A stretch of DNA of 64,000 nt from a virus: positions 65,911-129,910 of IMG/VR virus record IMGVR_UViG_3300028840_004168; one strand, given 5' to 3'. How positions within the stretch are numbered: position 1 is the stretch's first letter; each line of letters opens with the position of its first letter. The notes below the pieces were generated by a model. The model saw only the letters and a program-made list of their open reading frames with translations, searched no databases and was not told the origin of the DNA. Both the position numbers and the translations under genes were made by a program. Of the stretch, positions 28,024 through 61,356 are shown one piece after another.

Positions 28024-28575
28024 ATGGTAGCATATAGCACTCCAGCATTAAAGCAGAAAAAAGACCTGGCTGAATACCTTAACAGCATATATGTTGTAAA
28101 GGCACGTATACTTAACCTTACAGAATTAGGCTATCACTATAAACACGAAGAAGAAGAGATTGAGTTCCCACCAGATTCACTGACGATCTTAAATTCAGAG
28201 CAATGGATGGGCATCACAGCCAATACCAACTTCCTCAATAGAGTCCAAGAAGGCATATTTAAAGTAGACATAGCCAACTACTATATCTGTGTCAGGTACG
28301 CAGAGGGCAAGACATGGCACATAGTCAAAGAAGCCCACCTGACTAATATAGGCGGCTACACGCCTATATGCCTGTGCGATCCAGACAACCCTGCAGGCAT
28401 AGTGACATTCCAGGCATCAGCCCATAGCAGGATGAATGAGATATACAGCAAAAACCCAAACCTCTGCCGCATGTGCCACAACATCGCCAGGGGGATAATA
28501 CCGGAAGCAGATACAGAAGGCATGCGCATAAAGCCCAAAAGAAAACGTCTATTCAACCAGTATAAGGCAAAATAA
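28024..28575 (+). CDS. Family B protein with tag
   Basis: KARILNL...WHIV...LC...NPNLCRMC; ends KRKRLFNQYKAK. Confidence 0.7.
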   Translation: MVAYSTPALKQKKDLAEYLNSIYVVKARILNLTELGYHYKHEEEEIEFPPDSLTILNSEQWMGITANTNFLNRVQEGIFKVDIANYYICVRYAEGKTWHIVKEAHLTNIGGYTPICLCDPDNPAGIVTFQASAHSRMNEIYSKNPNLCRMCHNIARGIIPEADTEGMRIKPKRKRLFNQYKAK

Positions 28576-29123
28576 TGAACATAACCAGAGTCAAAGAATA
28601 CATGGAAGAGACTGTTGCCAAGAAGATAAGGATACTTTGCAATACAGCAACACCTATATCTTTCGTATTACATGGCAGATACTGGCATCCCACATTCAAC
28701 CCAGGATCTACAATCACAGTCAATATGGAAGAATATAACGCCCTGCTTGCACATGAAACTTTCGTGAGGCTCATAAAAACCAAAGGCCTTATCATAGAAG
28801 AGGCTGTCTATTATACCTGCTTCAACCCCAATCAAGACTCGAACAGCCTCTGGCATGTCATCAAAGACGTGCAAACGGCAAGCGAGACGTTGTCTATATA
28901 TAGACCCAGGCCCCTGTGCAATGAAAAGATGGATCACAATATGAGGGCATCGGAAAAAACGCCTACACAATGGGTCACACGGCTCCAGCACAACTGCCCC
29001 GACATCTGTATGAAGTGCAGAGTAATCATGGGCAATATCTTAAAAGAAGCCGAAGACAAGCAAACAGACCCACCAGCGGCAGCTCGTAAGAAACGTTTAT
29101 TCAACCAGTTCCTGAAAAGCTAG
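28575..29123 (+). CDS. Family B protein with tag
   Basis: KIRILC...WHVI...PLC...CPDICMKC; ends RKKRLFNQFLKS. Confidence 0.7.
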   Translation: MNITRVKEYMEETVAKKIRILCNTATPISFVLHGRYWHPTFNPGSTITVNMEEYNALLAHETFVRLIKTKGLIIEEAVYYTCFNPNQDSNSLWHVIKDVQTASETLSIYRPRPLCNEKMDHNMRASEKTPTQWVTRLQHNCPDICMKCRVIMGNILKEAEDKQTDPPAAARKKRLFNQFLKS

Positions 29124-39324: not shown

Positions 39325-39582
39325 ATGCATAAGTCAAATCAAAACGCTCAAACCCCTGAAATAATCATACTTGTAGTAGATGGAGTAGTGACAGACATAG
39401 CGTCTGACATTACCCTGAACACTACCATTATTAATGCAGACAGTGACGGATACCTGGATGAAGATGAAGTGACACACAGCTACAACGGCAAAGAAGCGTC
39501 CGTGATAGTAAACAGAATCAACCCTGAACCTGGACAGCTTGAACACCTTAAATCAAACCTGGAAAAGAAGGAGGCCGAATAA
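39325..39582 (+). CDS. Hypothetical early protein
   Basis: Start revised to ATG 39325 (GAAAGGAG SD). Confidence 0.55.
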   Translation: MHKSNQNAQTPEIIILVVDGVVTDIASDITLNTTIINADSDGYLDEDEVTHSYNGKEASVIVNRINPEPGQLEHLKSNLEKKEAE

Positions 39583-40229
39583 TGGATGACTGCTTACATG
39601 AAGAAAGTTATAAAGGCTATACTATCAAGGTTTACCATGATGACGTAACTGGTTATCATGACAGCCCAAGAGACTGGGACAACCTCGGAACCATGCTATG
39701 TGTCAAACATAGACACTACCTACTCGGAGATGAACAGCAAGACGCAGACGATATCAAAGAATTCATCAAAGAAAATGAAAACAACATCGTATGGCTGCCA
39801 CTATACCTGTATGACCATAGCGGTCTGAGAATGAATACAGGCGGATTTCACTGCCCCTGGGATTCAGGACAGGTTGGCATTGTCTATGTCACTAAAGAAA
39901 GAATCCGTGAAGAGTATAGCTGCAAGCGTATTTCCAAAGCGACCCTCAAAAAAGTGTTGAATGTGCTCAATGGCGAAGTTAAAAATTACGACCACTATAT
40001 CTCTGGTCAAATCTACGGCTATATTATCGAAGATGAACACGGAGAAGATGGAGATTCTTGTTGGGGCTTCTACGGAGATTACGAAGAATACATGCTGCCT
40101 GAATGCAGATCAATCATCGACCACGATATAATTCATCGCTCGAAAGAGGCTGCCAGTGAAGCTATCCAGGAGATATGGGAGGTGCAGGCCAAGTTCGATG
40201 CGCTTGGATGGATAGGAGCAATCATATGA
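39582..40229 (+). CDS. Conserved phage/MGE hypothetical
   Basis: SPRDWDNLGTM...LPLYLYDHSG...WDSGQVG...SCWGFYG. Confidence 0.7.
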   Translation: MDDCLHEESYKGYTIKVYHDDVTGYHDSPRDWDNLGTMLCVKHRHYLLGDEQQDADDIKEFIKENENNIVWLPLYLYDHSGLRMNTGGFHCPWDSGQVGIVYVTKERIREEYSCKRISKATLKKVLNVLNGEVKNYDHYISGQIYGYIIEDEHGEDGDSCWGFYGDYEEYMLPECRSIIDHDIIHRSKEAASEAIQEIWEVQAKFDALGWIGAII

Positions 40230-44463: not shown

Positions 44464-44889
44464 ATGAGCTTACTGTGGCAAGATACTAGCCAAGTATACT
44501 TGAATATCTGTGTAATATTTGGCTTGATTTTAATAGCATGGTATGGTATACATAGACTTATGGGATTCATACCATTGAGAATAACAAGAATTATTCGAAA
44601 TCGCAAGGGGGTAACTATGCCTAGCATTGATGAATTATTGTTCTTACACTACAAGCATGACAAGACATTCTGTCCTGAATGCGATCCTATGGGTATATCT
44701 AAAACGCCATATGGAGTAACACAGCTCAATAAGCAGGTGCATCCAGGCAGGCAGGTAGTCATCAGCCTGCAATGTTCCAGGTGCAAAGCTGTCTGGAACG
44801 AGATCTATGACCTGGAAGATATAATAGTCACGTCTCCAGGGAGCGTAGGCAGCCTGAAACGCAACAAGAAGCCTTCACAAACCGCTTGA
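44464..44889 (+). CDS. Hypothetical protein, TM plus zinc ribbon (possibly two genes; second start MPSID)
   Basis: CPEC...CSRC; internal GGGGG SD. Confidence 0.45.
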   Translation: MSLLWQDTSQVYLNICVIFGLILIAWYGIHRLMGFIPLRITRIIRNRKGVTMPSIDELLFLHYKHDKTFCPECDPMGISKTPYGVTQLNKQVHPGRQVVISLQCSRCKAVWNEIYDLEDIIVTSPGSVGSLKRNKKPSQTA

Positions 44890-45035
44890 CAGATTCTACG
44901 GATCTGATATAATGCAAACATACCCAATTTCCTCCCCAGGGTATCGGGCCAGGGAGCCCCAAAAGCATGAAAGACGTACTGCCTATTTTTTTCCTTTCAT
45001 TTCATCCAATCTCCCTGGCCTTTCCTTTTTTCTCT

Positions 45036-45788: not shown

Positions 45789-46025
45789 ATGGTTGAACTG
45801 CTGCTTCAGGTGCTGGTATATATGCTTAGCTATCCTTTAATGATAATTGGCAGCGCATTGCGTCTCCGTATAGATATCTCTGTGTGCACTATGGGTAAGA
45901 CTTCTATCTCAAACATAGCTCTATCTAACAGGCGAGTGAGCAGTGTAGCTATATATAACGGCTGGCAGTGGAAATATATAATGGGTAATACTTTACTAAC
46001 CAGGAAAAGAGGGGGTAAAATATGA
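45789..46025 (+). CDS. Hypothetical membrane protein
   Basis: GGGGGTG SD. Confidence 0.5.
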   Translation: MVELLLQVLVYMLSYPLMIIGSALRLRIDISVCTMGKTSISNIALSNRRVSSVAIYNGWQWKYIMGNTLLTRKRGGKI

Positions 46026-46222
46026 GAATAGGATTTATACTGGCGCTTATAACAAGCGTGTTATACTTTATATCAACAGCTATACAGGGATATATGGGCG
46101 TAGACAATGGCAATGTGCTGATGGGATATATGGCAGGCTTCTACGGCGGTGCATCTATCATGATACTATTCGGCTTCAAGGACTTCTATAACAGGACTTT
46201 CAGGGGGATATATGATGCCTGA
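46022..46222 (+). CDS. Two-TM membrane protein
   Basis: Hydrophobic; ATGA coupling. Confidence 0.55.
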   Translation: MRIGFILALITSVLYFISTAIQGYMGVDNGNVLMGYMAGFYGGASIMILFGFKDFYNRTFRGIYDA

Positions 46223-47286: not shown

Positions 47287-47508
47287 ATGAAAGAACTAAT
47301 ATTTACTTTGTTATCGATGCCTGTGTTATACCTAGCTCGTTTGTTAGGGCACAAGGCTGACATGAACCTGAGAATCAAGGGTGACAGCCTGGACAACTGG
47401 CTGACCGTCTACAACTACGATGCGTTCAAAGGGTGTGAGATACTGTGCCATGTATGGAAGAGCAGCTATCTCTTGGGCCTTACCATATCTTCAAGGAGAG
47501 GGGTGTAA
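47287..47508 (+). CDS. Hypothetical protein
   Basis: Coupled ORF. Confidence 0.5.
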   Translation: MKELIFTLLSMPVLYLARLLGHKADMNLRIKGDSLDNWLTVYNYDAFKGCEILCHVWKSSYLLGLTISSRRGV

Positions 47509-47777
47509 TGTATCCAGATCATCTTGACCTTATAGAAAAGATAGCGCTCTTCGACTTCAAGGCCAGCGTGTTTATTATATATGCAGCGTGGATGTACTGG
47601 GGCATACGGAGTTTCAGCGACTATGCGCATAAAAACTACAAGCAGGGCATAGGGGCTGCAGGCGTGTTCTTTATGGCTATGACTGGAGTGCCGATAGCGT
47701 TGACTTTGGGCGCAGGGGTAGGCATAGTGTCATTTATATTTGGATCTCTGATCGACATATTAATCTTTAGCTGGTGA
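47508..47777 (+). CDS. Membrane protein
   Basis: Start revised to MYPDHL; 2-3 TM. Confidence 0.55.
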   Translation: MYPDHLDLIEKIALFDFKASVFIIYAAWMYWGIRSFSDYAHKNYKQGIGAAGVFFMAMTGVPIALTLGAGVGIVSFIFGSLIDILIFSW

Positions 47778-47784: not shown

Positions 47785-48318
47785 ATGCCTTTAAGAATGA
47801 CACATGAATTCGCTTATGTAATCGCCAAAGGCGCTAACCTTTATGCTGAACGTGGGCGTATAATCACTGTCAACAAGATAGACTGCACTTACTTTGGGGC
47901 AAGGCATTACGGCAAGCATGAGGAATTCAGCAGGCATGATTCATGTAAGAAATGCAACCCATCTTTCAGGAACGTGTGCAGATGGCTGAGCAAGGAGTTT
48001 GAAGGCCTCTGCCATATGATCAAGAATGTTGATGAATTCAAGAAGTATGATCTAAACTTAACCGAATGCCATACTATGATAAAGAAGCACTTGCCGTATA
48101 CCTGCACTTATATATGCAATACCAGGATGACAAGTGAAAAGAACAGCGAGTTCGGATATAAGCCTATCGAAGACCTGGAAGCTACATGCAGGTGGAGAGA
48201 TGATTACATAAGCTTCGGAGATGGGCTGTATGATGCAGAAATGATAGAGAGGCCGCTTGATGAGCCAGTAATGAAAAAAAAGAAACGAAGCATGTTTAAC
48301 TTCGGGGGTAAGAAATAA
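47785..48318 (+). CDS. Family A Cys-rich protein with tag
   Basis: NKIDCTYFG...CKKC...C...C; ends KKKKRSMFNFGGKK. Confidence 0.7.
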   Translation: MPLRMTHEFAYVIAKGANLYAERGRIITVNKIDCTYFGARHYGKHEEFSRHDSCKKCNPSFRNVCRWLSKEFEGLCHMIKNVDEFKKYDLNLTECHTMIKKHLPYTCTYICNTRMTSEKNSEFGYKPIEDLEATCRWRDDYISFGDGLYDAEMIERPLDEPVMKKKKRSMFNFGGKK

Positions 48319-48824
48319 TGGCAGGTATACATGATGACTGGGCTGGCATGTCTGATGTCTTGGCAAGGGCTGCGGTAATCACTATCAGGCGGCACAGGCT
48401 GATCGGTATCAATAAGATCGAATGCAAATACTTCGGGGCAAGGTATCTGCCTAATGGAGAAAACTGGCATGCTTACCGCCATGAATGCAAGGTATGCCAT
48501 ACAGACTGTGTAAATGCCTGTGCCGAGATGTCTCATGAGAGGGTCGATATATGTGGGCGTATACAGCGTATCTCTGGTGTCTCATGTCCTGTAGGCAGAG
48601 CGTTCTTTCCACATGTATGTGTGATGCTGTGCAAGCTGGCCTCAGAGAGCGAAAAGCCAAGCGCCACTGACAGATTTCAATCATATCCTGTGACCATGCC
48701 TTTCCACGACAACACAGAGATAGAGGTAAAGTTCACTAACAAGTCAGCTCATGGAGAGAGGGTTGCCAATAGAGTGCCTGATAAGAAAAAGAGAAGTATG
48801 TTTAACTTCGGGGGTAAGAAATGA
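48318..48824 (+). CDS. Family A Cys-rich protein with tag
   Basis: NKIECKYFG...CKVC; ends KKKRSMFNFGGKK. Confidence 0.7.
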   Translation: MAGIHDDWAGMSDVLARAAVITIRRHRLIGINKIECKYFGARYLPNGENWHAYRHECKVCHTDCVNACAEMSHERVDICGRIQRISGVSCPVGRAFFPHVCVMLCKLASESEKPSATDRFQSYPVTMPFHDNTEIEVKFTNKSAHGERVANRVPDKKKRSMFNFGGKK

Positions 48825-49336
48825 AATTCGATAAGATGTTCAGGGTAACTATAGACCTGATGCTGCTGACCACAAGCTATATGGCTAGGCGGTATCTGCT
48901 GATACACAGGAACGAGATCAAGTGCGCTTACTTTGGCTGCAGGTATAATGACAATAAACCGTTCGGCTATAACGAGATATGCAAGGAGTGCAACGGATCT
49001 TTCTTTGGCGTATGCGCAGACCTGTCTGTAAGAAGAAACTATCTTTGCAATGAGATATCAGACAGAATGGAATGTGAAGCTGCAGAAAAAACATTCGGAG
49101 CTTTCTGCGGAGAGCTCTGTAAAACAGAACGGCGCAGCTATGAGTGTATAGATAATGGTAAAGGATATGAACCTGAAGCGATGGATCACAGGACGTGCGA
49201 AGGTATCAATCTAGCCTTCACTCTTACGGTAGATGACGATGCCAAGAAGCCGCCTGAGATAAGCGATATAGAGCCAGTAGCGAAGAAGAAAAAGAGAAGC
49301 ATGTTTAAGTTCGGGGGCAATCGTGAAACTGACTAG
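48821..49336 (+). CDS. Family A Cys-rich protein with tag
   Basis: NEIKCAYFG...CKEC; ends KKKKRSMFKFGG. Confidence 0.7.
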   Translation: MKFDKMFRVTIDLMLLTTSYMARRYLLIHRNEIKCAYFGCRYNDNKPFGYNEICKECNGSFFGVCADLSVRRNYLCNEISDRMECEAAEKTFGAFCGELCKTERRSYECIDNGKGYEPEAMDHRTCEGINLAFTLTVDDDAKKPPEISDIEPVAKKKKRSMFKFGGNRETD

Positions 49337-49682
49337 AGGAAGCGTATCAAGGATGTTATCGAAGATAGTAGAGATAGGCGCTGGCACAGACAAAGAACCG
49401 CCGCCTGATATGGGAATATGCGATAGCTGCGGTACTAAAGATTTTATCTGGAATTTTGAAGTGGAGCAGGAAGGTGACTGGGAAGAAGGGTATTATGACG
49501 TGCATGTCTGCCCTTACTGTGATGACGGATATATAGTGGATTACGACTACAGCCCTGAACAGCTGGAACTGCTGGAAACATACTGGGAAAGAAAAGATCA
49601 GAAAAGAAGGTATCTTGAGATGAAACCTTTAAAGAAAAAAAGAAAGATGTTTAAGTTCGGGAGTAACGATGTCAAGGAGTAG
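49323..49682 (+). CDS. Zinc-ribbon protein (not family A) with tag
   Basis: CDSCG...CPYC; ends KKKRKMFKFGS. Confidence 0.65.
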   Translation: MKLTRGSVSRMLSKIVEIGAGTDKEPPPDMGICDSCGTKDFIWNFEVEQEGDWEEGYYDVHVCPYCDDGYIVDYDYSPEQLELLETYWERKDQKRRYLEMKPLKKKRKMFKFGSNDVKE

Positions 49683-49799
49683 GATACTTTATAGCTTGAA
49701 ATACAGCCTGAGAGTCCATAAATTAGCCGATATGGACTTCAAACCACGTTGGATGAGTGTTTATATACTCTTGCTGCCAAAGGGCGTTAGGAGACGAAT

Positions 49800-50366
49800 A
49801 TGAGCTTTAAAACAACTAAGGAGCAAATAACAGATATACTTGACATCATAGCGCAGACGGCTATAATAGACATGAATATCTTCAGGCTTAAAAATATGAA
49901 CGACATTAAATGCGATTACTTCGGGGTGCGGTATACAGACGAACAAAAATCTTTTGTGGAGAATAAATTCTGCCTGACATGTAATGATGAGTTCAGTGAA
50001 GAATGCGAATCGCTGTCAAGGGAATGCTGTGATATGTGCGAGCATTTAAAAAGCATGATGAATTGCGGTGTGGCACAGATGGCAGTGCCACGTCTATGCA
50101 AAGACTTCTGTGATTTCAGGACTCAGAGCTTCGGGGCCAGCAACAGCGAAGGGATGGGCTATTCGCCTGTGCCAGACTACATAGAAAGGGAAGACGAACA
50201 TGGGCGTATAGCAACGATCCCCAATGTAATAAAAGGAGCCAGGGTTAACTATGTCCTAAAGACGATAGTAGATGGAGTGCAGGTAGCAGATAAGAACATA
50301 GACATGCTGCATGCCAGAAACAAGACCAGGGTGAAGAGGCGATTTCATTTCGGGAGAAGCAAGTGA
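49800..50366 (+). CDS. Family A Cys-rich protein with tag
   Basis: NDIKCDYFG...CLTC; ends RVKRRFHFGRSK. Confidence 0.7.
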   Translation: MSFKTTKEQITDILDIIAQTAIIDMNIFRLKNMNDIKCDYFGVRYTDEQKSFVENKFCLTCNDEFSEECESLSRECCDMCEHLKSMMNCGVAQMAVPRLCKDFCDFRTQSFGASNSEGMGYSPVPDYIEREDEHGRIATIPNVIKGARVNYVLKTIVDGVQVADKNIDMLHARNKTRVKRRFHFGRSK

Positions 50367-50950
50367 AAGACACTAAAGAAGTTAAAGAAAGCGTCATGAA
50401 TGCTGTCTTGGGGTTTATGCGCAGACTGTTCTTAATAGATATAGAGCGTGCATACCTCTGCCATATGAATGGCATTACCTGTAAATACTTTGGCAGAAAG
50501 TATCTTGAAGCGAATGGAGAAGATGAAAACAATATCCTGAAGGTATACGTGGAAAATGAAAATACTCATGCTGCCTGTCTTCACTGTAACGATGAATTCA
50601 GGGTTGAATGTATCAGGATAGCAGGCAGGGCATACAGGCTATGCGATGATATCAGGCACACTCTTGCTATTAGCTGTGGCGAATGCGAAAGGATGTTTCC
50701 AGGGCTGCTTGCAGGCTACTGTGACCACATGAACGAAAGCGCTAAAAGAAATGATGCTAATGTAGATGACAACTATCGCTCTGTGCCTGTAGGCTGTGCA
50801 GGAGATGGCGAAGAGCTGCCTTACAACATCGTGTTCAATCATGGAGACAGAACGTTTATAGTGAAAGAGCTCAGGAGTTCGTTTCCTATAGAGCCAGAGC
50901 AGCCGAAGAAGAAACGTAAGTTTCATTTCGGGAGAAGCAAGGATGAATAA
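50363..50950 (+). CDS. Family A Cys-rich protein with tag
   Basis: NGITCKYFG...CLHC; ends PKKKRKFHFGRSK. Confidence 0.7.
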   Translation: MKDTKEVKESVMNAVLGFMRRLFLIDIERAYLCHMNGITCKYFGRKYLEANGEDENNILKVYVENENTHAACLHCNDEFRVECIRIAGRAYRLCDDIRHTLAISCGECERMFPGLLAGYCDHMNESAKRNDANVDDNYRSVPVGCAGDGEELPYNIVFNHGDRTFIVKELRSSFPIEPEQPKKKRKFHFGRSKDE

Positions 50951-51467
50951 CAACGAACATGACGGACTGGACGATGCTACCAGGATAGTGGGAGATGCAT
51001 GGCTGCTATACCTGGATCTATGCATGTTTGCAGACACAAACAATGTGTTGTGTATATACTTCGGGCTGGACTATGACCATGCCAGCAGGACATGCCAGAA
51101 ATGCCATCCAGCAGTAAGCGACTTCTGCCAGAACACAATCACTGTAAGGCAGCAGCTATGCGAAGAAAGAGACAACATTATAGATTATCATGGCTGCCCT
51201 GACTATGGACAACAGATAGCTAATCCAGAGGCGCTGGAAGTCAAGTATTGGTGGGCTCCTTTGTGCTACAACCTGTGCTTCAAGGCAAGAGAGCTTAACA
51301 GGGCTAGGCACAGGCGCAGAGCGCATGGCAGCGAATACCTTGTCGATGAGTATCTTCCAGAGATTGAAATAAGAACCATACCAGAGGAAGCGCCAGTGCG
51401 CAAATCCACTGATATAGAGATAAAGAAGAAGGGCAGACGAATGTTTGGATTTGGAGATAAGCAATGA
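50943..51467 (+). CDS. Family A Cys-rich protein with tag
   Basis: NNVLCIYFG...CQKC; ends KKKGRRMFGFGDKQ. Confidence 0.7.
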   Translation: MNNNEHDGLDDATRIVGDAWLLYLDLCMFADTNNVLCIYFGLDYDHASRTCQKCHPAVSDFCQNTITVRQQLCEERDNIIDYHGCPDYGQQIANPEALEVKYWWAPLCYNLCFKARELNRARHRRRAHGSEYLVDEYLPEIEIRTIPEEAPVRKSTDIEIKKKGRRMFGFGDKQ

Positions 51468-51970
51468 GCTGGCAAAATACTAAAAAGATAATAGAGCTTA
51501 CCAATGAGATAATGCGGTATCATCTATCATGGATATCTACCAAGAAGACTTCCAGCATCGCATGCAGTTCCTTTGGTATAGCCTATGAACAGCTAGATGA
51601 CCACTGCATAGAATGTAATGTGTATGTGAAAGAAGCATGCAGTAATTTCTCTCAGAAGTTCGGCAGCCTGTGTGCCAACGTTCAGACATATGTGTGCAGC
51701 AAGAGGCCAGAGCTGCAAGATACAAAAGAGATATGTTCATTAACCAAGCCTGTGTTCCCTACGCTATGCAGCTACCTGTGCAGGATACATCGTGGAGCTT
51801 CAACAGAAGTTGGCTCACGCTATCCACATTCAGGCGATAATTATATTCCAATCTATGAAATAGACATAAAGAGTAAACTGGTAAAGAAGGAGCCGAAAGT
51901 CGCTGATATAGAGATAAAGAAGAAGGGCAGACGAATGTTTAGTTATAACACACTTTCTAAGAAAGGCTGA
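51464..51970 (+). CDS. Family A Cys-rich protein with tag
   Basis: SSIACSSFG...CIEC; ends KKKGRRMFSY. Confidence 0.7.
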   Translation: MSWQNTKKIIELTNEIMRYHLSWISTKKTSSIACSSFGIAYEQLDDHCIECNVYVKEACSNFSQKFGSLCANVQTYVCSKRPELQDTKEICSLTKPVFPTLCSYLCRIHRGASTEVGSRYPHSGDNYIPIYEIDIKSKLVKKEPKVADIEIKKKGRRMFSYNTLSKKG

Positions 51971-51977
51971 AAAAAAA

Positions 51978-52066
51978 TATGAAATTTCAGAAAATAAAAA
52001 ATGCGCTCATTAAAAAACAAGTATGCTTAACTTTCTACTTGACAAATGTTCTATTATTATTATAAT
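51978..52066 (+). promoter_or_regulatory. Palindrome plus sigma70 promoter
   Basis: TATGAAATTTCAGA 51978-51991; TTGACA-16-TATAAT 52039-52066. Confidence 0.7.
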
Positions 52067-52104
52067 AATAATAATGTATGAAAATAAGTCGCTAAGGAGT
52101 AATA

Positions 52105-52590
52105 ATGGCGAGTCGTAAAAATATAGACATACTGAAAGAAGTCAAAGCAGAGTCATATAAGCTCGACTGGTTACGCATGGAGTATGCGCATGTAAACAAG
52201 ATCAAGTGTGATGCTTTTGGAGCAAACGGCAGATCGTCTCCATGTAGCAATAATTGCCATGTCGATGTATTAATGACATGCAGGAATATAGAAAAAGAGC
52301 TGAAACGTATCTGCGATATATTCAGCCACTATAGAACATATGAGAAAAAAAGATGTGATGTATGTAGAGTCGAAGTGCCTGTGCTCTGGCATGTCTGTAG
52401 TAAAAAGAATGCCAAGATAGTTGTGAGAGGGCATGCAGCTGAGTTAACTCCTGTGCGTAAAAACCTGTTGTTTATATCAGATGACTTCAAAAAAATAGAA
52501 GCTTTTGAAAGAAGCCAGAACAAGATAGAAAATATAGATATCAAATCCAGAAAGAGGAAGATGTTTAACTATGGCAAAAAAGAAAGTTAA
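52105..52590 (+). CDS. Family A Cys-rich protein with tag
   Basis: NKIKCDAFG; ends SRKRKMFNYGKK. Confidence 0.7.
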   Translation: MASRKNIDILKEVKAESYKLDWLRMEYAHVNKIKCDAFGANGRSSPCSNNCHVDVLMTCRNIEKELKRICDIFSHYRTYEKKRCDVCRVEVPVLWHVCSKKNAKIVVRGHAAELTPVRKNLLFISDDFKKIEAFERSQNKIENIDIKSRKRKMFNYGKKES

Positions 52591-53128
52591 GAATAAAACA
52601 AAGAAAGCTAAGAAAGCAGCCAACAAAGATCCGTTCAAAGAGCTCAGGCTTGCCGTATACCTGCTTGACTGGCGCATGAGTGAGTTTGAATACCTGAATA
52701 GGATAAGCTGTGATGCCTTTGGAACCTGCATTGAATCAGAATGTCACGAAGAAGAGGATGGCGATTTAAGATGCAACAGGGAAGTCATGGCTAAGTGCAA
52801 GCAGTTTGAGAAAGAAAGAAAAAAGCTGTGCAAAGAGTTTAAACAGATGAGCCAGATAGTTTATGGTGACAAGTATAAGTGCACTAAATGTGTAGACCAC
52901 CTGCCGTTGCTGGCAGCTATATGTGACAGAGACGGCCCTAATCCTGAATGCGACACAGATGTTGTTAAACAGATACCACACAGCGCTGTATTGCTTATAC
53001 ATGAAGCAGATGGCATCCTGACATCAGGTGGATGGACTGAGATACCAGATGCAGCTGAGCAGATGCTTGAAAACATGCGAGACAAAAACAAAGGCAGAAA
53101 GATGTTTGCCTATGGGAGAAGAAAATAA
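52571..53128 (+). CDS. Family A Cys-rich protein with tag
   Basis: NRISCDAFG; ends KGRKMFAYGRRK. Confidence 0.7.
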   Translation: MAKKKVKNKTKKAKKAANKDPFKELRLAVYLLDWRMSEFEYLNRISCDAFGTCIESECHEEEDGDLRCNREVMAKCKQFEKERKKLCKEFKQMSQIVYGDKYKCTKCVDHLPLLAAICDRDGPNPECDTDVVKQIPHSAVLLIHEADGILTSGGWTEIPDAAEQMLENMRDKNKGRKMFAYGRRK

Positions 53129-53382
53129 TGGCTGTAACTTTAAAAAATTTAAAAGATCTGGAAGCTGCAATCAGATACAAGCTTGCTGATAATCCATCAA
53201 GAGCTAATATAATATTGACCGTAGACAACAAGCGCAAGCACAGCTGGCTGGTCTTGAACAAGAAAGTTGGATTTGTTGAGACGGTCACATTGTTTGAAGC
53301 CAAGAATAATCTGCCTGGGCGTGCTAAGATGTACACTTATCTTAAAGGGATGAGAATGGCATTGGAGATAAGCAATGGCTAA
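53128..53382 (+). CDS. Hypothetical protein
   Basis: TAATG coupling; MYTYLKGM..AL. Confidence 0.55.
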   Translation: MAVTLKNLKDLEAAIRYKLADNPSRANIILTVDNKRKHSWLVLNKKVGFVETVTLFEAKNNLPGRAKMYTYLKGMRMALEISNG

Positions 53383-53857
53383 AAACACAAGAAGCGATAT
53401 AATCAAAAAAGCCAGGGCGCTGTCATACGTCCTTAACTGGAAGATATGGGAGTTCAAGAAGATCAATAAAGTTACGTGCAGATTGTTCGGCAATTACAAC
53501 GATTGTGGTGAAGAGGGCAAGTGCAATGTGGTATGCGTAGAAGCATGCGACATAATAGAGGGTGAACATAACTTTATCTGCAACCTGCTGGATGGTACTC
53601 AGTTTGAAAAAGATAATATATGCGAGATGTGTGAAAAAGAAGTGCCGCTGCTATATGAAGCATGCATAGATAAAGATAGATACAATAGCAGGCCGAAGAG
53701 CCGCAAGGCAAACGTGAAGCCGCTGCAGAACAACAACTCGTTCATTAAAACGATGAGAGAGTGCGGCATATATCTCAAGAAAGAAAAAGAAGAGAAGTCT
53801 AAGAGAATAAAAATTAAACATAGAAAGAGAAACATGTTTAGCTTTGGAGAAAAGTAA
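53375..53857 (+). CDS. Family A Cys-rich protein with tag
   Basis: NKVTCRLFG; ends HRKRNMFSFGEK. Confidence 0.7.
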   Translation: MAKNTRSDIIKKARALSYVLNWKIWEFKKINKVTCRLFGNYNDCGEEGKCNVVCVEACDIIEGEHNFICNLLDGTQFEKDNICEMCEKEVPLLYEACIDKDRYNSRPKSRKANVKPLQNNNSFIKTMRECGIYLKKEKEEKSKRIKIKHRKRNMFSFGEK

Positions 53858-54348
53858 TGGCAAAAGCAAAAGCTGAAGCAAAAAAGGAAATAGATCGCCA
53901 GCAACTGATGGAGATCAGAAACATCAGGATTGCTTCTTATTTGCTTGACTGGGAAATGCGTGAATACCAGCAGCTTTACAACATAGAGTGCAAAGCGTTT
54001 GGTGGGTATGAAGAAAATACTATATGCGACAAGTGCAATGACAGGATAGCTAATGAGTGCGCCATGATATCAGATGCTGCGATAGAATTATGTGAAGCAG
54101 GCGAGAACGGCATGTGCAGCCAATGTGAAGCTGATTATCCTGCATTGTTTAATGTTTGCGACAGATCAAGTGCAGGCCCTGAAGATAGGAAACCAGTTGA
54201 CAGAAATAAAGAGATAAAATATCTCATGCCTGATGTTACTCTTAAAGTAAAAATAAAAACTATGATATCTGAAACAAACGCAGATTCTAACATAGCGCCT
54301 GCATCCAGAAAGAAAAGAGCTATCAAGCTAGGAGATAAAAAGGAGTGA
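53857..54348 (+). CDS. Family A Cys-rich protein with tag
   Basis: YNIECKAFG...CDKC; ends RKKRAIKLGDKKE. Confidence 0.7.
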   Translation: MAKAKAEAKKEIDRQQLMEIRNIRIASYLLDWEMREYQQLYNIECKAFGGYEENTICDKCNDRIANECAMISDAAIELCEAGENGMCSQCEADYPALFNVCDRSSAGPEDRKPVDRNKEIKYLMPDVTLKVKIKTMISETNADSNIAPASRKKRAIKLGDKKE

Positions 54349-54530
54349 CGATGGTTGATGCCAGAAAATTTTGGGATAACTTTTTTGAATTCCTGTCAGA
54401 CACTGAAGGCCAGCCTATCGAAGAGATAGAAGCGGAGCTGAAAGAAGATGTCATAGACGTAGACAAGGTCAAGCAGAGTGTTTACGACTTGCTTGATAGA
54501 TTTGAAAAAGAACAAAAGAAAAAGGAGTGA
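54345..54530 (+). CDS. Small acidic protein
   Basis: IEEIEAELKEDVIDVDKV. Confidence 0.55.
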   Translation: MTMVDARKFWDNFFEFLSDTEGQPIEEIEAELKEDVIDVDKVKQSVYDLLDRFEKEQKKKE

Positions 54531-54913
54531 CGATGTCTAAGTTTAATAAAGAAAATTCACTGGAAGTTGTTTCTTACATTCTGAAACAAACTAAGGCCAA
54601 GAAGATATCATGGAGAAGGACAGGCGCTGGCATGCATCGTGATACCGAATACTATGATTACAAGGGCGCTATGAGATCATATAAATTGTTTATCAGCGGA
54701 GTGGTTGCAGGGGGCATATCTCATTGGCTGGATACCTTTCGACTGGTAATAGATAAAGACGATGTTATAGCAGCTGTGGAATGGCGAAGGCCGGAAATGA
54801 AAGAGTTGGTCAAGCTATGGGAAGAAGTTAGAAAATTTGCTGATAACAAACAAAGCGCCGATCAAAGGAAACTCAAGAAAGATATTTTAAAATTGGCAAG
54901 AGAAAATAAATAG
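54527..54913 (+). CDS. Hypothetical protein
   Basis: TKAKKISWRR; coupled. Confidence 0.6.
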   Translation: MTMSKFNKENSLEVVSYILKQTKAKKISWRRTGAGMHRDTEYYDYKGAMRSYKLFISGVVAGGISHWLDTFRLVIDKDDVIAAVEWRRPEMKELVKLWEEVRKFADNKQSADQRKLKKDILKLARENK

Positions 54914-54928
54914 AAAGGAGTAACAACG

Positions 54929-55282
54929 ATGGACGATGTGCTCACTACGCTAAAGAAAAAGAAAGAATTTTATCTGGAAGAAGTAAGTAAAATAAATAAG
55001 GCAATAGCGGTTATCACTAAAAAAGATACAGCTGTATCTCCTAGAAGAGTAAAATGGGGAGATGTAGTCATGGAAGTTTTTGAAGATCAAGATAAAGAGG
55101 TCTTATACTCTTTAGCCTATGTGCGCCAAGAGCTTGCAAGCAGAGGTTATCCAGAAGCATTAGACGAAAAGAAAAAGGCTGCTATATTTGACGCATTAAA
55201 AAGACTAGTAGCTAGAGGAATATTAGGCAAAGATGGTAGTAGTCGTTATTATTTATATCAGAAAAGGAGTGACGATGTATAA
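54929..55282 (+). CDS. Coiled coil plus winged-HTH-like protein
   Basis: AIFDALKRLVARGILGKDGSSRYYL. Confidence 0.55.
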   Translation: MDDVLTTLKKKKEFYLEEVSKINKAIAVITKKDTAVSPRRVKWGDVVMEVFEDQDKEVLYSLAYVRQELASRGYPEALDEKKKAAIFDALKRLVARGILGKDGSSRYYLYQKRSDDV

Positions 55283-56012
55283 CATACTTTCTATTGACTG
55301 GGACTATTTCTTTCCAGATGTAGCGCCGTATGATTGGGGTCACACTGAGAACAGATCTCCTATGCCCCAGCAACTGCTTTGGACTATAAGAGCAGGCAAT
55401 GGAGATATGTATGGCAAGAACAGGCCAGCGATTGATTATATTAAACCATCGGGGGCTGAGAAAAATTTCTGGAATTACATAAAATTTAAAGAGCACTCGC
55501 TGCTTGCCATATGTGAATCACACAGCGACCTGCATGCTATAGTTGACAAAGTCCTTGTGGCAAAAAAGATAGGAGTATGGAACTTCGATGCTCACCATGA
55601 CCTATATCACAAAGACGAACTTGACTGTGCCAACTGGCCCCACCACCTTATCACAGACGGTTATATCAAGCTGAAAGATTACCACCTGATCATGCCTGCC
55701 TGGGCTAAAGAAGCCAATGTCATGTGCAATTCCGCTTACAGACGTGATCGTGTAGATGTAAGATATGACATGCCTGAAGACCTGCCTGAGTTCGACATGA
55801 TATTTATATGCAGGTCAGGCGCATGGACACCCCCCTGGTGCGATGCTGACTGGATCAAGTTTATCGAACACTGGAAAGGCACAAGGCAGTGGCGCACGAA
55901 AATAGCTCTCCAATATGCTTTAGAGCCGAGAGAGTTTGACAAGGATCAGGCTATGGAATGGGCTGCACAACAAGAAGAAGCGATGAAGAGAGTTATAGGA
56001 GCAAGCAAGTGA
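55275..56012 (+). CDS. Arginase/deacetylase-fold (UPF0489-like) metallohydrolase
   Basis: LSIDWDYFF, ESH, NFDAHHDL; start revised to MYNILS. Confidence 0.6.
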   Translation: MYNILSIDWDYFFPDVAPYDWGHTENRSPMPQQLLWTIRAGNGDMYGKNRPAIDYIKPSGAEKNFWNYIKFKEHSLLAICESHSDLHAIVDKVLVAKKIGVWNFDAHHDLYHKDELDCANWPHHLITDGYIKLKDYHLIMPAWAKEANVMCNSAYRRDRVDVRYDMPEDLPEFDMIFICRSGAWTPPWCDADWIKFIEHWKGTRQWRTKIALQYALEPREFDKDQAMEWAAQQEEAMKRVIGASK

Positions 56013-56371
56013 CAGTTGAATTATTGTATGGAATCATAGATCTGACTATAGCTCAGATGCACAGCACAGCAGACCACGTATTCCAGGAAGACAGTACTAT
56101 ATCTGTGCCATTAGATAAAATAATTCTGATGACCGATAAGAACTATCATTCACATTATTCAGATATTCCACAATCAGGATCTATGATATTCCTTGAAGGT
56201 GGAACCCATCTGACAGTCAAAGAAACAAGAGATTATATCTTTAAAGAAATAGAGAAGTCATTTGAGATCCTAGGTGTCAGCATGATTGACAAGACCATAG
56301 GATCAAATAACACCAGACGGAAACGTAGATTATTCTGGATAAAGGATGAAGCGAATGAAAAAAAAGACTAG
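56009..56371 (+). CDS. FlbD-like small beta protein with tag
   Basis: SVPLDKII...SMIFLEGGTHLTVKETRDYI; ends RRKRRLFWIK; GTG start inferred. Confidence 0.5.
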   Translation: MTVELLYGIIDLTIAQMHSTADHVFQEDSTISVPLDKIILMTDKNYHSHYSDIPQSGSMIFLEGGTHLTVKETRDYIFKEIEKSFEILGVSMIDKTIGSNNTRRKRRLFWIKDEANEKKD

Positions 56372-56567
56372 GGCAGCAACAGCTGCAGCCAAGATGTTTG
56401 ATGTGATATTTACACATGTAGATCTCATGTATCAGAACAACACAGCGCTTAACTACTTCAAGCACCTGAAGGAATGCGTGGATGCAGAAGTAGCGAGACG
56501 TGAACGTATTAAATTGCAGATCCGCAATCGCAAATGGAAAGCAAAATTAACACTAAACGGCAAATAA
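56346..56567 (+). CDS. Hypothetical protein
   Basis: Coupled ORF. Confidence 0.5.
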   Translation: MKRMKKKTRAATAAAKMFDVIFTHVDLMYQNNTALNYFKHLKECVDAEVARRERIKLQIRNRKWKAKLTLNGK

Positions 56568-56577
56568 GGAGCCAAAC

Positions 56578-56904
56578 ATGTTCAGGAAAAGCAAAGACGG
56601 ATTAGATTTCGATAAGCTCTTTGGAGATTTTTTCAACAGGGAACGAACTATACTTGACAGTGTGGAAAGGAAAGTTCTCTTGGAGACTACTGTTATAGTA
56701 AACGACCATGCCAGGAAAGCAACTGTGCCTGTCAATAACATAGACTACGTGCAGGAATACGATGGAGTAACCTTTGAAGGATACGAAGACGATGTAGCTC
56801 ACAAACGATGTAAGACTATCATATTCCTGAAGACAGACAGTATACTGCTTTCTCTGGATAAGTATGAAGATGTTATAAATGCAATAGGATTGAAGAGAGG
56901 CTGA
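56578..56904 (+). CDS. FlbD-like small beta protein
   Basis: TVPVNNIDYVQE...TIIFLKTDSILLSLDKYEDVINAI. Confidence 0.5.
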   Translation: MFRKSKDGLDFDKLFGDFFNRERTILDSVERKVLLETTVIVNDHARKATVPVNNIDYVQEYDGVTFEGYEDDVAHKRCKTIIFLKTDSILLSLDKYEDVINAIGLKRG

Positions 56905-57401
56905 TGGAACCATTAAGCAATGTTAATAAAAAAATATTAAGAGAAGCGCTAGAGCTGTCAGCTAAAGCTGCATTGGTAGAGATGAATATCGTAGCAGTCA
57001 GTTGCCTGAACAAGATACCATGTGAATACTTCGGCATTGGATTCAACAGGAAGTGCATGAACAAGGGCAACGATCCAGAAGTAAGCAAGCGATGTGAACA
57101 GTTTGTCAAGCTATGGCAAGACCTATGCTTTCAAACTCAAGAGTTGCTTATGACAGGCGAATGCGAGAAGATAGGACATATTATATATGTAGCCTGCAGG
57201 CTGTGCAAGCTTAAGGCTAAATATTTAGAAGAGCAAGATCTGAATCTAATTTCCAGGTGCAGAATAAATGTGCCTGAGTTTGAAAACTTTGGCATCGACT
57301 GGTCTTTAAAGTTTAAAGATAATAAACTATGCGAAAGAGATTACAGAAAGAAGAAAGCTGCAGCCGCAGGCAAGAAAAGAAAGATGTTCAGTTTTAAGTA
57401 G
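56904..57401 (+). CDS. Family A Cys-rich protein with tag
   Basis: NKIPCEYFG; ends GKKRKMFSFK. Confidence 0.7.
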   Translation: MEPLSNVNKKILREALELSAKAALVEMNIVAVSCLNKIPCEYFGIGFNRKCMNKGNDPEVSKRCEQFVKLWQDLCFQTQELLMTGECEKIGHIIYVACRLCKLKAKYLEEQDLNLISRCRINVPEFENFGIDWSLKFKDNKLCERDYRKKKAAAAGKKRKMFSFK

Positions 57402-57415
57402 GAGATAAATAGTAA

Positions 57416-57934
57416 GTGAATTATAATTATAAGAAAGGGCATAAATACAGCATGACTAAAGGCGAAGAGATCAAGAGGCAGGCATTCCAGCTGCATTTCC
57501 AGTTTGAAAGGTTTGTCAGGATAAATAAGATAGAGTGTCCTCACTTCGGAGATGGATGGTCAGACCATCATAAAGATTGTCTGGAGTGCAACGTGCTTGT
57601 AAATGAAGAATGCAAGCGCATTGACAGTGAGATAAAAAAGATATGCCGCACGATACAAGAAGGGTATACAAACGGATGCAGTGAGATGTATCAGCGCAAA
57701 TTCGCTCCGCTATGCCTTTCTATATGCCAGCCATTGAAGCACATAAAAAAGAAAGGGTTTCTGCGCAAGCCATATTTGAATAAAAATAAAGAAGCTATCA
57801 CTATGTTTGAATTTAAAGTGTCTGTCAATAATAACAAGACAACAGAGCTCCAGGCAGTCAATGAATTCCTGACTGCTAAAAGAGTCAGGCGCAACTTCTT
57901 CTTTAATAAAAGCACTAAAGGAGTAGAGCGATGA
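57416..57934 (+). CDS. Family A Cys-rich protein with tag
   Basis: NKIECPHFG...CLEC; ends KRVRRNFFFNK. Confidence 0.7.
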   Translation: MNYNYKKGHKYSMTKGEEIKRQAFQLHFQFERFVRINKIECPHFGDGWSDHHKDCLECNVLVNEECKRIDSEIKKICRTIQEGYTNGCSEMYQRKFAPLCLSICQPLKHIKKKGFLRKPYLNKNKEAITMFEFKVSVNNNKTTELQAVNEFLTAKRVRRNFFFNKSTKGVER

Positions 57935-58281
57935 CAGTATATAAAAGGTGGGCTGATATATTTACAAAGACACATGAATCTTACAACATCAGCTGTAACC
58001 ACTTCGGAGTCGGTAAATACGATGGCTATAGTGAATGCAAAGATTGTGTGATCAGATATACCTGCAGAGAGCTAGGAAGTTTATTTATGTCGATATGCAA
58101 TGCATATCACTCAGAAGACTGCGATGGTGACTGCGGCGCAGAGTGCCCTGTGCTTAATGATGCATGCCATATAGAATCAACCGATGCGCCGCCTACTCCA
58201 GTGATACGTGCAGACAAGCATAAGACGGAAATAGTCAAGCGCAAGAGGCGCAAGATGTTTCAGTTCGGAGATAAGAAATGA
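57931..58281 (+). CDS. Family A Cys-rich protein with tag
   Basis: YNISCNHFG...CKDC; ends KRKRRKMFQFGDKK. Confidence 0.7.
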   Translation: MTVYKRWADIFTKTHESYNISCNHFGVGKYDGYSECKDCVIRYTCRELGSLFMSICNAYHSEDCDGDCGAECPVLNDACHIESTDAPPTPVIRADKHKTEIVKRKRRKMFQFGDKK

Positions 58282-58631
58282 CGATCTATATTGATATATA
58301 TCACAAGTGGGAAGATCATTATGATCAAGCTGTAGACAGATATGATATCAAATGTCCATACTTCGGTTTTGGCAGAACTTATGATTTTGCAGAGTGTAGC
58401 GAGTGCGCTGTAGTGATGACATGCAGTAGCATGGGAAGCTGGCATAAGGAACTGTGTGAAAGGCTGGATTCAGAAGAATGTAGCGCATACTGCAAAGAAA
58501 GATATCTTGCAATGCACAAAGCATGTGAGAAACAGCACTCTCAATCTATACCTGTGTCTGTATTAAAGAAAGTAAAAGTCAAGAAAAGAAAAAGTAAGCG
58601 CAAGATGTTTCAGTTTGCAGATATAAAGTAA
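58278..58631 (+). CDS. Family A Cys-rich protein with tag
   Basis: YDIKCPYFG...CSEC; ends KSKRKMFQFADIK. Confidence 0.7.
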   Translation: MTIYIDIYHKWEDHYDQAVDRYDIKCPYFGFGRTYDFAECSECAVVMTCSSMGSWHKELCERLDSEECSAYCKERYLAMHKACEKQHSQSIPVSVLKKVKVKKRKSKRKMFQFADIK

Positions 58632-58640
58632 GGAGAGTAA

Positions 58641-59750
58641 ATGTCAGAAGATGATCTTAAACAGATAAAAGACCTTGCATTGATGCGATACAGGATTATG
58701 AATACGTTACAGCTTGAATGCAAGATGTTCGGCATAGTGGGATGGGCTACTTATAACACAGTCGGGATGTGTAATACGTGCAATCCTAAAGTCATGGATG
58801 CCTGTGTAAAGATAAGCGTCAACCACATGCACCTATGTCATGAGATAAAGGAATGCAGCAAGTGCAGGGATTATAACCAGGGCATTTTCAGCTTCTGTGA
58901 AGAGATAAGAAGAGTGCGTGATGATGAGTCTGCCTGCATCCCCTGCATAGAAAAACTGTCTGCAATAAGATTGAACAAGACGAAGCGCCGTCAGATGTTC
59001 AGCTTCAAGGAAGAAAAATCTGAAATTTCAGAAAAAAAAGTTGAACAGAAGATAGAAAAATTTTCTGAAGAGCTCAACAACATCGTGTTTAGCAACTTGC
59101 CAACGATAAACCACAGCGCTACGCAAGAGATGCCTACCGAAGAAGAAGCTGTTCCAGAAGTAGATGCTGTCGGACATGACGTAACCTACAAGCAACGCAT
59201 AGCAGATGACATGGATGATTTAGACCTGCCAGCAGATTATTATATCACAACAAGATCTTATCTCGATGGCATAGGAGAGAACTTTGGCTATAACGATGAC
59301 GTATCACAAACGCTTGCTACTGGATTTGATCACATATCACAGTTCGACAGAAGGATATACGGCATCTTCACTCAGATAGATGTAGAGCACCATGAATTCC
59401 CTCTGCTTGAAGCGGTAGACGACTTGCTTGAAGCGCTGCATGGCAGAACACATCTGGCATTCAGCAGCTACTACCATGACTCATGGACTAGACTTCATGA
59501 CACACTGTTCAGAGCGCAGTTCTGTCCGTTCAGATGGCGCATAGCTTATGGCACTCCAGAAGAAGTAAGAGGCATGCTTTTAAATATGCATGATGATGTC
59601 ACTATGGCGCTTGCAGAATGCACAGATGAGTGCATGATGCATGTGGTATCGCATTTCCTCATCGCTCTTATAGTGAACGATTACAAATTGCAGGAACCTG
59701 CGCAGCCTGCAGATAGCAACTGGCATAGTGATGACGATATCCCTTTTTGA
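58641..59750 (+). CDS. Family A domain plus internal tag fused to acidic helical domain ending in SSB-like tip DDDIPF
   Basis: LQLECKMFG...CNTC; internal TKRRQMFSFK; C-terminus SDDDIPF. Confidence 0.65.
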   Translation: MSEDDLKQIKDLALMRYRIMNTLQLECKMFGIVGWATYNTVGMCNTCNPKVMDACVKISVNHMHLCHEIKECSKCRDYNQGIFSFCEEIRRVRDDESACIPCIEKLSAIRLNKTKRRQMFSFKEEKSEISEKKVEQKIEKFSEELNNIVFSNLPTINHSATQEMPTEEEAVPEVDAVGHDVTYKQRIADDMDDLDLPADYYITTRSYLDGIGENFGYNDDVSQTLATGFDHISQFDRRIYGIFTQIDVEHHEFPLLEAVDDLLEALHGRTHLAFSSYYHDSWTRLHDTLFRAQFCPFRWRIAYGTPEEVRGMLLNMHDDVTMALAECTDECMMHVVSHFLIALIVNDYKLQEPAQPADSNWHSDDDIPF

Positions 59751-60407: not shown

Positions 60408-61356
60408 TATTTTTGATATGGTAGTCATACTTGCAATATTCCTGCAGGCGCTTGTTTTGAAGCGTAGCGGCATTCTGCGCCGTATGCTGACTAAGAGAGT
60501 AGAGACGCTTGAAGATGAGGTTATGAAAACTCGTAGCAGGATTGCTACCCACAGGCTTTTACAAAACGCTCCACGTTTAAACGATCTGCTTGACAGAATA
60601 AACAACATCCAACAAGAAGATTATGAGAATAGATCTGCAATAGCCAGAATACAGACTCAGCTTGATAGCCTGGGATACAGTATAGAAGGGCCATCTCCAG
60701 ATAATATAAATGAAAGAGTAGAGACATTAGCCAGACAAGCATCCAGAGATATATTAAGAGAAACGCAGGAAGAACAGCGCAGGCAACACGCTGATCATAT
60801 AATAGCATTGCGAGAACAAGATCCTAGAATGCATGCGCCATTAGGACTCCCAACCAATGCAGCTGTTCAAAACATGACAGAGCACGTAATTGAAATACAA
60901 GATCTAGGATTAGCAGTTGGTACAGACAACAGAATAAATTTGCATGACGCTGGATTTACATTTGCACAGATAAATGACTCTGCAGATCTTCAAAGGCTAG
61001 TGTTAAGTGGCGCTCTGTATGCTCATAACCTTCCGCTATTAAGAACAGGCAGGGCAGCACCGCCTTATTCAGTCAGCTATCAGCCATTAAGAGACAGAAT
61101 ATCTGTTACTGCAACACAGCAGATAGAAAGAGATTCAAGTTCTTCATGGGAAGATCAGCATACACAAGAACAGCTGGCAGCCGCTGGCTACACTGGCCTT
61201 GCAGATCTTGGCTATAGTGATGAAGAGTATGAAGATCCAGATGATTGCGCTATTCCAAAAGAACCTGATCTAATCGATGTTAATAATATTAAAAAACGCA
61301 GACGGGCGATCAAGCATAAAAAATCTGAAATTTCAGAAAAAAAAGAGAGGAAGTAA
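60394..61356 (+). CDS. TM-anchored coiled-coil protein with internal virion-type domain and tag
   Basis: N-terminal TM; VQNMTEHVIEIQDLG...SADLQRLVLSG; ends KKRRRAIKHKK. Confidence 0.6.
   Translation: MVMIDIFDMVVILAIFLQALVLKRSGILRRMLTKRVETLEDEVMKTRSRIATHRLLQNAPRLNDLLDRINNIQQEDYENRSAIARIQTQLDSLGYSIEGPSPDNINERVETLARQASRDILRETQEEQRRQHADHIIALREQDPRMHAPLGLPTNAAVQNMTEHVIEIQDLGLAVGTDNRINLHDAGFTFAQINDSADLQRLVLSGALYAHNLPLLRTGRAAPPYSVSYQPLRDRISVTATQQIERDSSSSWEDQHTQEQLAAAGYTGLADLGYSDEEYEDPDDCAIPKEPDLIDVNNIKKRRRAIKHKKSEISEKKERK

Follow-up and report, generated by a model that had tools for sequence, protein, structure and literature searches.

What does an uncultured tailed phage gain from sixteen copies of one small cysteine-rich protein? 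The copies, here called family A, lie in an array at positions 47785-59750 of a 64,000-nucleotide (nt) stretch of viral DNA. This stretch, the window, covers positions 65911-129910 of the IMG/VR record IMGVR_UViG_3300028840_004168, and coordinates are positions in the window unless marked otherwise. The source record is 129,910 bp long and is rated complete, with a 144-bp terminal repeat; the window is its right half. The explanation that we favour, tentatively and at rather less than an even chance, is that family A is a panel of metal-stabilised binding proteins with a common C-terminal address tail, which would serve host takeover or counter-defence.

The array is a single multigene family

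The original prediction, made from the DNA letters alone, listed sixteen open reading frames (ORFs) and proposed that they form one paralogous family rich in cysteine. All sixteen were found on the plus strand at the expected positions, encoding proteins of 116-369 amino acids (aa). For a leave-one-out test, the C-terminal tail was removed and each member was scored against a profile of the remaining 15. The trimmed members scored 26.9-64.0 bits (E from 6e-7 to 2e-18), compared to 12.1 bits for the best of 2000 composition-preserving shuffles. Because the members far outscore composition-matched shuffles, their similarity is not a by-product of cysteine content. Mutual profile similarity beyond cysteine content, on which the original prediction had staked the family, is thus present in every member. 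When the entire 129,910-bp genome was scanned with the family profile, exactly 16 members were found, all on the plus strand within 47785-59750, and the other matches were to the tail only. Together the members occupy 8.6 kb, or 6.6% of the genome.

The genes had also been described as all translationally coupled and all tagged. Coupling was seen for 11/16, whose starts overlap the preceding stop by 1-20 nt, and not for the other five, which start 7, 9, 14, 117 and 134 nt after the preceding gene. A basic-hydrophobic tail was detected in 16/16. Member 16 (58641-59750) has it internally, at residues ~113-122, with an extension of 250 aa after it.

The last codons of this extension (59730-59750) encode an SSB-like acidic tip, D-D-D-I-P-F. 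A similar end, E-E-D-I-P-F, is found on a 356-aa protein encoded beside the recombinase and polymerase genes (L004:201-1271, minus strand), in which Pfam shows no SSB domain.

An eight-cysteine scaffold with a predicted helical fold

In the alignment of the 16 members, which covers their full length, C-x-x-F-G and three more cysteines are invariant, and a C-x2-C pair, one further cysteine and one proline are nearly so. Each core contains 7-10 cysteines, with eight conserved positions. The parts follow in a fixed order: an N-terminal helix of 30-40 residues, the C-x-x-F-G turn, C-x2-C, a constant C-x10-C helix and a third helix, after which come a disordered linker of 20-60 residues and the polybasic-aromatic tail.

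The third helix occurs in two types. Type I, found in nine sequences including a single homologue from outside the phage (P0017, described below), carries C-x10-12-C-x2-3-C; type II, found in eight sequences, carries C-x2-3-C-x10-11-C. The extra helix-3 cysteine positions are mutually exclusive, with one of them, never both or neither, occupied in 17/17 sequences. Since this compensated shift holds the count at eight, a role of the cysteines as metal ligands is plausible, and on this pattern the family A cores may plausibly bind metal, either as Zn or as Fe-S. The members are listed below with their type, their tail and any exact word of tail-coding DNA that they have in common with a neighbour. 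Member 5 is of type II within an otherwise type I block.

Member 1: 47785..48318, plus strand, 177 aa, type I, tail; leave-one-out score 59.8 bits
Member 2: 48318..48824, plus strand, 168 aa, type I, tail; AlphaFold model m53c60ae0dbb4; 25-nt tail-DNA word in common with member 1
Member 3: 48821..49336, plus strand, 171 aa, type I, tail
Member 4: 49800..50366, plus strand, 188 aa, type I, tail variant F-H-F-G; AGGAGA ribosome-binding site before the ATG
Member 5: 50363..50950, plus strand, 195 aa, type II, tail variant F-H-F-G; 21-nt tail-DNA word in common with member 4
Member 6: 50943..51467, plus strand, 174 aa, type I with a long insert, tail
Member 7: 51464..51970, plus strand, 168 aa, type I, tail; final gene of block 1; 38-nt tail-DNA word in common with member 6
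Member 8: 52105..52590, plus strand, 161 aa, type II, tail
Member 9: 52571..53128, plus strand, 185 aa, type II, tail
Member 10: 53375..53857, plus strand, 160 aa, type II, tail
Member 11: 53857..54348, plus strand, 163 aa, type II, tail variant A-I-K-L; AlphaFold model m21d1897ffea4
Member 12: 56904..57401, plus strand, 165 aa, type I, tail; without one cysteine of the first C-x2-C
Member 13: 57416..57934, plus strand, 172 aa, type I, tail variant F-F-F
Member 14: 57931..58281, plus strand, 116 aa, short N-terminal helix and linker, type II, tail; 26.9 bits; sister of member 15 (support 97/93)
Member 15: 58278..58631, plus strand, 117 aa, type II, tail; 18-nt tail-DNA word in common with member 14
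Member 16: 58641..59750, plus strand, 369 aa; core, internal tail and 250-aa extension with the SSB-like acidic tip

Two AlphaFold models, of members 2 and 11, were built from the 17-sequence alignment and agree with each other. Their mean predicted local distance difference test (pLDDT) values are 69 and 75 and their predicted template modelling (pTM) scores 0.57 and 0.60. Both models predict a three-helix bundle with a core pLDDT of 80-94 (>90 in the N-terminal helix), a linker below 50 and a tail of ~65. In the predicted layout the first helix leads into a loop holding C-x-x-F-G and the first C-x2-C, the C-x10-C pair lies on the second helix, and a short loop connects to the third. The structural comparison suggested with the original prediction was performed and returned no specific match. 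Foldseek gave no match at E <= 1 against the PDB (best E >= 3) or against BFVD (best E >= 1.7). VIA-align, run with both models against 48,161 chains, gave generic three-helix bundles only, with best Z scores of 7.2 and 6.6, below helical-bundle noise.

An old family with one outside homologue

Sequence searches agree with the earlier failure to recognise a family: like the structural comparisons, searches of Pfam, PHROGs, PADLOC, PDB profiles and the ESM Atlas came back empty. The best Pfam match had E = 0.02, and all Pfam matches were far under the cut-offs. PHROGs and PADLOC gave no matches for family A, the PDB sequence profile search gave only weak PHD/RING coincidences (E >= 0.2), and the ESM Atlas scores were < 0.8, the noise level. 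A word-indexed search of 5.8 billion proteins recovered only the phage's own proteins with the family A profile and only P0017 with P0017 as query. The proposed profile search was also run exhaustively with HMMER on 1.84 billion representative proteins. It yielded the 16 copies and P0017, the single outside homologue, leaving family A a near-orphan.

P0017 (139 aa, E = 2.5e-6) has the full type I cysteine pattern and a basic C-terminus without the aromatic part. Its gene lies at 10001-10420 of a 14-kb metagenome contig (L001, contig k141_143372 of ENA ERZ27256783) and is single-copy as far as the contig extends. Four other early genes of this contig are common with the phage, at 35-62% identity, and the carrier of P0017 is a distant relative of the phage.

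Searches through genomic context and through the tail gave no further members. A 215-aa protein encoded at 39582-40229, with S-P-R-D-W-D-N and C-P-W-D motifs, matches no Pfam family; at least 101 phage contigs in IMG/VR encode relatives of it (32-54% identity). Among 80 phage loci with relatives of this gene, neither a family A member nor enrichment of the tail was found. A degenerate pattern of the tail DNA matched 27 IMG/VR contigs, in none of them at the end of a cysteine-rich ORF, and these matches were read as chance. The literature search revealed nothing relevant on such a tail or family.

The array had been interpreted as a gene-accordion expansion. Taken as a recent amplification, this is not supported. 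The copies are ~25% identical on average, saturation is evident in the maximum-likelihood tree, whose terminal branches have a median of 2.27 changes per site, and the same proteins are found in all public assemblies. Among the window copies, support of >=85% was obtained only for the pair 57931/58278 and the group 52105/52571/53375. Member 47785 groups with P0017 at 85/77, possibly falsely, as the branches are long. Because the copies are only ~25% identical and the tree is saturated, family A is, as judged from its divergence, an old multigene family and not a recent amplification. Outside the cysteines and C-x-x-F-G the sequence is extremely variable, with core net charge ranging from -10 to +7 and core isoelectric point (pI) from 4.5 to 9.1. 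The diversifying selection originally proposed finds no support here, since divergence is saturated and population variation is absent: the other public assemblies of the phage encode identical proteins, and two apparent variants differ only in the notation of a GTG start.

Host-type promoters point to early expression

The genome was scanned for promoters with the sigma-70 consensus, accepting TATAAT or TATACT at -10. This revealed ~17 perfect 12/12 sites, compared to about 0.1 estimated by chance. The perfect sites are co-oriented with the clusters of small genes and with the replication genes of the left end, and none is located in the structural module. From position ~83 kb of the genome rightwards to its end, small genes are arranged in three strand blocks, of which the last, on the plus strand, contains family A. 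Two perfect sites lie ahead of family A blocks:

44886..44913, plus strand: perfect sigma-70-type promoter, upstream of the operon running into block 1
52039..52066, plus strand: perfect (12/12) sigma-70-type promoter with a 16-nt spacer, in the gap before block 2

Given this distribution, with perfect sigma-70-type sites around the array and none in the structural module, family A is most likely transcribed early by the host RNA polymerase. Virion-packaged internal proteins were also considered and are unlikely given the host-type promoters and a strand opposite to that of the structural module. Another perfect 12/12 sigma-70-type site (49840-49867) lies inside the sequence coding for the N-terminal helix of member 4.

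A C-terminal tail found on several folds

The family A tail consists of 4-6 Lys/Arg, one variable residue, M/F-F-x-F/Y and usually a Gly, followed by 1-8 more residues. It is not confined to family A. In a profile-profile comparison with an unrelated H...C...C-x2-C family (22352-29123), only the last 23 columns, which correspond to the tail, could be aligned. The tail was also found on HicB-like and other folds, and on one protein encoded within the array:

49323..49682, plus strand: 119-aa protein outside family A with two C-x2-C pairs and the same tail (tail-only match); 15-nt tail-DNA word in common with member 3

A C-terminal polybasic run is present in 32/68 genes of the two plus-strand early clusters, compared to 11/107 elsewhere (p = 6e-8). 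Four of these 11 resemble true tails; their genes lie at the left genome end, close to perfect host-type promoters of matching orientation. Located on the minus strand at L003:4625-9049 (genome coordinates, outside the window), these four are a classic AAA ATPase gene (534 aa), a DUF3150 protein gene (369 aa) and two small ORFs. Beyond family A, ~20 proteins of unrelated folds carry the tail, nearly all of them early.

The end of the tail has two coding functions. The Gly codon and the codon after it (GGG GGT, GGG AGA, GGA GAT and similar) precede the next start by 6-10 nt, and the Gly codons double as the ribosome-binding site of the next gene. This position explains the Gly-rich end. The Gly is missing where no coupled gene follows or where the ribosome-binding site falls after the stop. 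The whole tail as a by-product of ribosome-binding sites was considered and rejected. The next start follows its basic-aromatic part at a distance of ~25-40 nt, codon choice in this part is mixed, with CGC among the codons, and the part is retained at operon ends. Because this part lies too far upstream, mixes its Lys and Arg codons and is kept without a coupled downstream gene, it is under selection as a peptide.

Tail-coding DNA of neighbouring genes has exact words of 38, 25, 21, 18 and 15 nt in common, whereas in the bodies of the same neighbour pairs no common word exceeds 11 nt, and over all pairs none exceeds 16 nt. The 15-nt word joins family A, through member 3, to the unrelated fold encoded at 49323-49682. 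Since tail DNA is near-identical while the bodies are saturated, the pattern points to gene conversion or recombination at the tails.

Two further features were observed at tail-coding DNA. The palindrome TCTGAAATTTCAGA or its 10-nt core directly follows three tails, at 51976-51993, 59017-59034 and 61322-61339, and the core occurs 4 times in the window compared to 0.3 expected. The copies at 59021 and 61326 are within a common 27-nt exact word, and the copy at 59021 is read through as coding sequence. The tail DNA of member 1 (48286-48304) could form a 6-bp hairpin with one G-T pair, whose 3' arm abuts the next ribosome-binding site; this hairpin turned up in a terminator scan on the opposite strand.

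A proposed panel of binders with a common address

Our explanation builds on the paralogy, architecture and orphan status of family A, its early-type promoters, the occurrence of the tail across folds, the dual coding of the tail end and the homogenisation of tail DNA. Family A would be a lineage-specific multigene family of early cytoplasmic proteins on one scaffold, a three-helix bundle held by eight cysteines, most likely via metal in the form of two Zn sites or an Fe-S cluster. Each copy most likely recognises a different partner, because all but the cysteines and C-x-x-F-G has diverged to saturation and the charge varies from -10 to +7. A disordered linker would tie this core to the polybasic-aromatic peptide ([KR]4-6, then M/F-F-x-F). 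This peptide would act as a common address or docking signal, gathering the tagged proteins at a single site or hub inside the infected cell; among the interchangeable binding heads delivered there, family A would form the largest set. Metal binding, the separate target of each copy, the address function of the tail and the biological role are what we infer. An anti-defence role, as decoys or effectors, was suggested with the original prediction and is a reasonable but unsupported guess; Pfam, PHROGs, PADLOC and the exhaustive search gave no homology to known anti-defence proteins, and these searches included no dedicated anti-defence library.

A broader version of this explanation would be a protein-addressing system for the whole phage. 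One tail, recognised either by an anionic surface or by one receptor of host or phage origin, would gather ~36 proteins at one site, most of them early and the AAA ATPase among them; they represent at least four unrelated folds, and family A would be the main library of metal-stabilised hypervariable heads. Tail DNA and the overlapping ribosome-binding site and start codon would form a recombination handle for duplicating, converting and swapping gene cassettes between operons. In this full form we consider the explanation possible and on the unlikely side.

Several points weigh against a panel of addressed binders. The tail is degenerate outside family A, and a single specific receptor is not assured. 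The family is known from one phage lineage and one homologue, which gives no comparative support for function. The pointers to a host are weak affinities to Bacillales phages. The AlphaFold models are based on 17 sequences and reach pTM scores of 0.57-0.60; with continuous helices, as modelled, the type I and type II cysteine sets would not fit two fixed Cys4 sites in a simple way.

Multigene families with a conserved terminal motif include the poxvirus ankyrin/PRANC proteins and the cysteine-rich MGF110 proteins of African swine fever virus (ASFV), which have an endoplasmic reticulum-retrieval end. Like these, family A combines a tandem array and a variable, putatively target-binding body with a constant terminal motif that may tie all copies to a common host machine or compartment. 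There is no relationship in fold, host or motif. MGF110 also features in PMC9769596. The T4-family proteins gp43, gp33 and gp55 carry C-terminal sliding-clamp-binding peptides, which the tails resemble in being C-terminal with Lys-Lys upstream of a hydrophobic end similar to M-F-x-F. In contrast to the T4 system, the polymerase here is DnaE-type and the tails of the other tagged families are without the M-F-x-F part. By inspection, the tails do not fit the Q-L-[SD]-L-F clamp consensus. A beta-clamp was not detected in the phage with PF00712, in a search that did not extend to T4-type clamp families.

The nearest phage parallel is Bacillus phage G, which has a lineage-specific expansion of ~35 zinc-ribbon proteins (Iyer et al. 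2021, PMC7824862). Both are large phages, apparently with Bacillota hosts, that carry tens of copies of a small cysteine-rich, presumably metal-binding protein. Unlike the phage G proteins, family A is predicted to be a helical bundle rather than a zinc ribbon, and the exhaustive search gave no sequence relative; no common C-terminal tail across folds has been reported for phage G. A lineage-specific expansion of small cysteine-rich proteins in a large phage is known; new are family A itself, the helical fold predicted for it and its association with a tail that recurs across the phage. If our explanation is correct, the array would be to this phage what multigene families are to large eukaryotic viruses, with one scaffold, many specificities and a shared delivery signal. 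It would also provide a compact, probably metal-stabilised new binder scaffold with 16 natural variants, and a portable peptide that directs cargo to a defined place or partner in the bacterial cell.

Possible alternative functions of the cores and the tail

A run of 4-6 Lys/Arg followed by aromatics would also suit a tail that binds DNA or RNA non-specifically, and the cores would then be transcription factors or structural, nucleoid-remodelling proteins. The role proposed for the phage G zinc-ribbon expansion is a precedent (PMC7824862), and member 16 is fused to an SSB-like acidic tip similar to that of the phage's putative SSB-like protein. However, the structure searches revealed no known DNA-binding fold in the cores, many of which are strongly acidic (pI down to 4.5), and the tail is also present on the AAA ATPase, HicB-like and other folds. 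We regard a nucleic-acid-associated function as unlikely. If family A did consist of ordinary DNA-binding regulators, the array would be one more lineage-specific expansion, like that of phage G.

The tail could instead be an electrostatic and aromatic membrane anchor, as in MinD, Noc and SepF, which would concentrate the binders at the inner membrane face where the DNA enters. Two small membrane proteins are encoded just upstream of the array (46022-46222 and 47445-47777). The membrane-targeting sequence of E. coli MinD is a C-terminal 10-mer (PMC5471200), and the tails are likewise short C-terminal peptides with Lys/Arg and Phe/Leu and a Gly at the end, many of them ending in F-G-G as the MinD 10-mer does. 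Unlike in MinD, the basic block precedes the hydrophobic block, the two are separate rather than mixed along an amphipathic helix, and the Gly codons are explained by the overlapping ribosome-binding site. The helical hydrophobic moment of the 16 tails did not exceed that of shuffled versions of the same tails; on average, a fraction of 0.46 of the shuffles was as high as the tail itself. An amphipathic targeting helix of the MinD kind is not supported by this result, and membrane targeting as a whole appears distinctly unlikely.

A folded head, a long disordered linker and a short C-terminal peptide also recall tethered adaptors. The tail would then be a degron, like the basic ClpX C-motif 2 of MuA, or an AAA+ tether, like the XB peptide of SspB, and would shorten the lifetime of early proteins or hand bound host targets over for destruction. 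Some tails do read R-K-K-R-A-I, and the phage encodes a classic AAA ATPase. This ATPase itself carries the tail, however, and a protease partner did not come to light. Between the tail and the free carboxyl end there are a further 1-8 residues, variable and often charged. A turnover or adaptor signal is more doubtful still.

Phage-encoded WhiB-like proteins exist, and WhiB-type redox or Fe-S proteins binding a host sigma factor would likewise be small and helical, with C...C-x2-C-x5-C, here C-x(n)-C-x2-C-x(5-7)-C for the first four cysteines, and a basic C-terminal tail; this identity fails both motif and profile tests and is very improbable, given that the spacing after C-x2-C is x7 in 10/17 sequences and x5 in 3/17, that there are eight cysteines rather than four, that the alignment contains no G-[VI]-W-G-G turn, that ten members scanned against Pfam gave no PF02467 match at E <= 1, and that the affinities of the phage are to Bacillota phages, not Actinobacteria phages.

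Genomic setting of the phage

The phage is of the tailed type, with portal and large terminase genes identified by a PHROGs search at 13008-16521 on the minus strand. Farther to the left are the replication genes, among them those for a DnaE-type Pol III alpha subunit, a DnaB-like helicase, a Toprim-domain protein (likely the primase), a UvsX-like recombinase and an SbcC-like protein. With the terminase, the portal and P0017 as queries, no relatives were found in IMG/VR, and the terminase found nothing in GTDB genomes. The closest cultured-phage relatives of the terminase (34%) and of DnaE (29%) are Bacillales phages. Because these nearest cultured relatives infect Bacillales, a Bacillota host may be guessed, weakly. 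Elsewhere in the genome, a 747-aa protein (L004:12993-15236, minus strand) has a family-9 glycosyltransferase domain and, in its C-terminal half, a weak, sub-threshold match to intein splicing.

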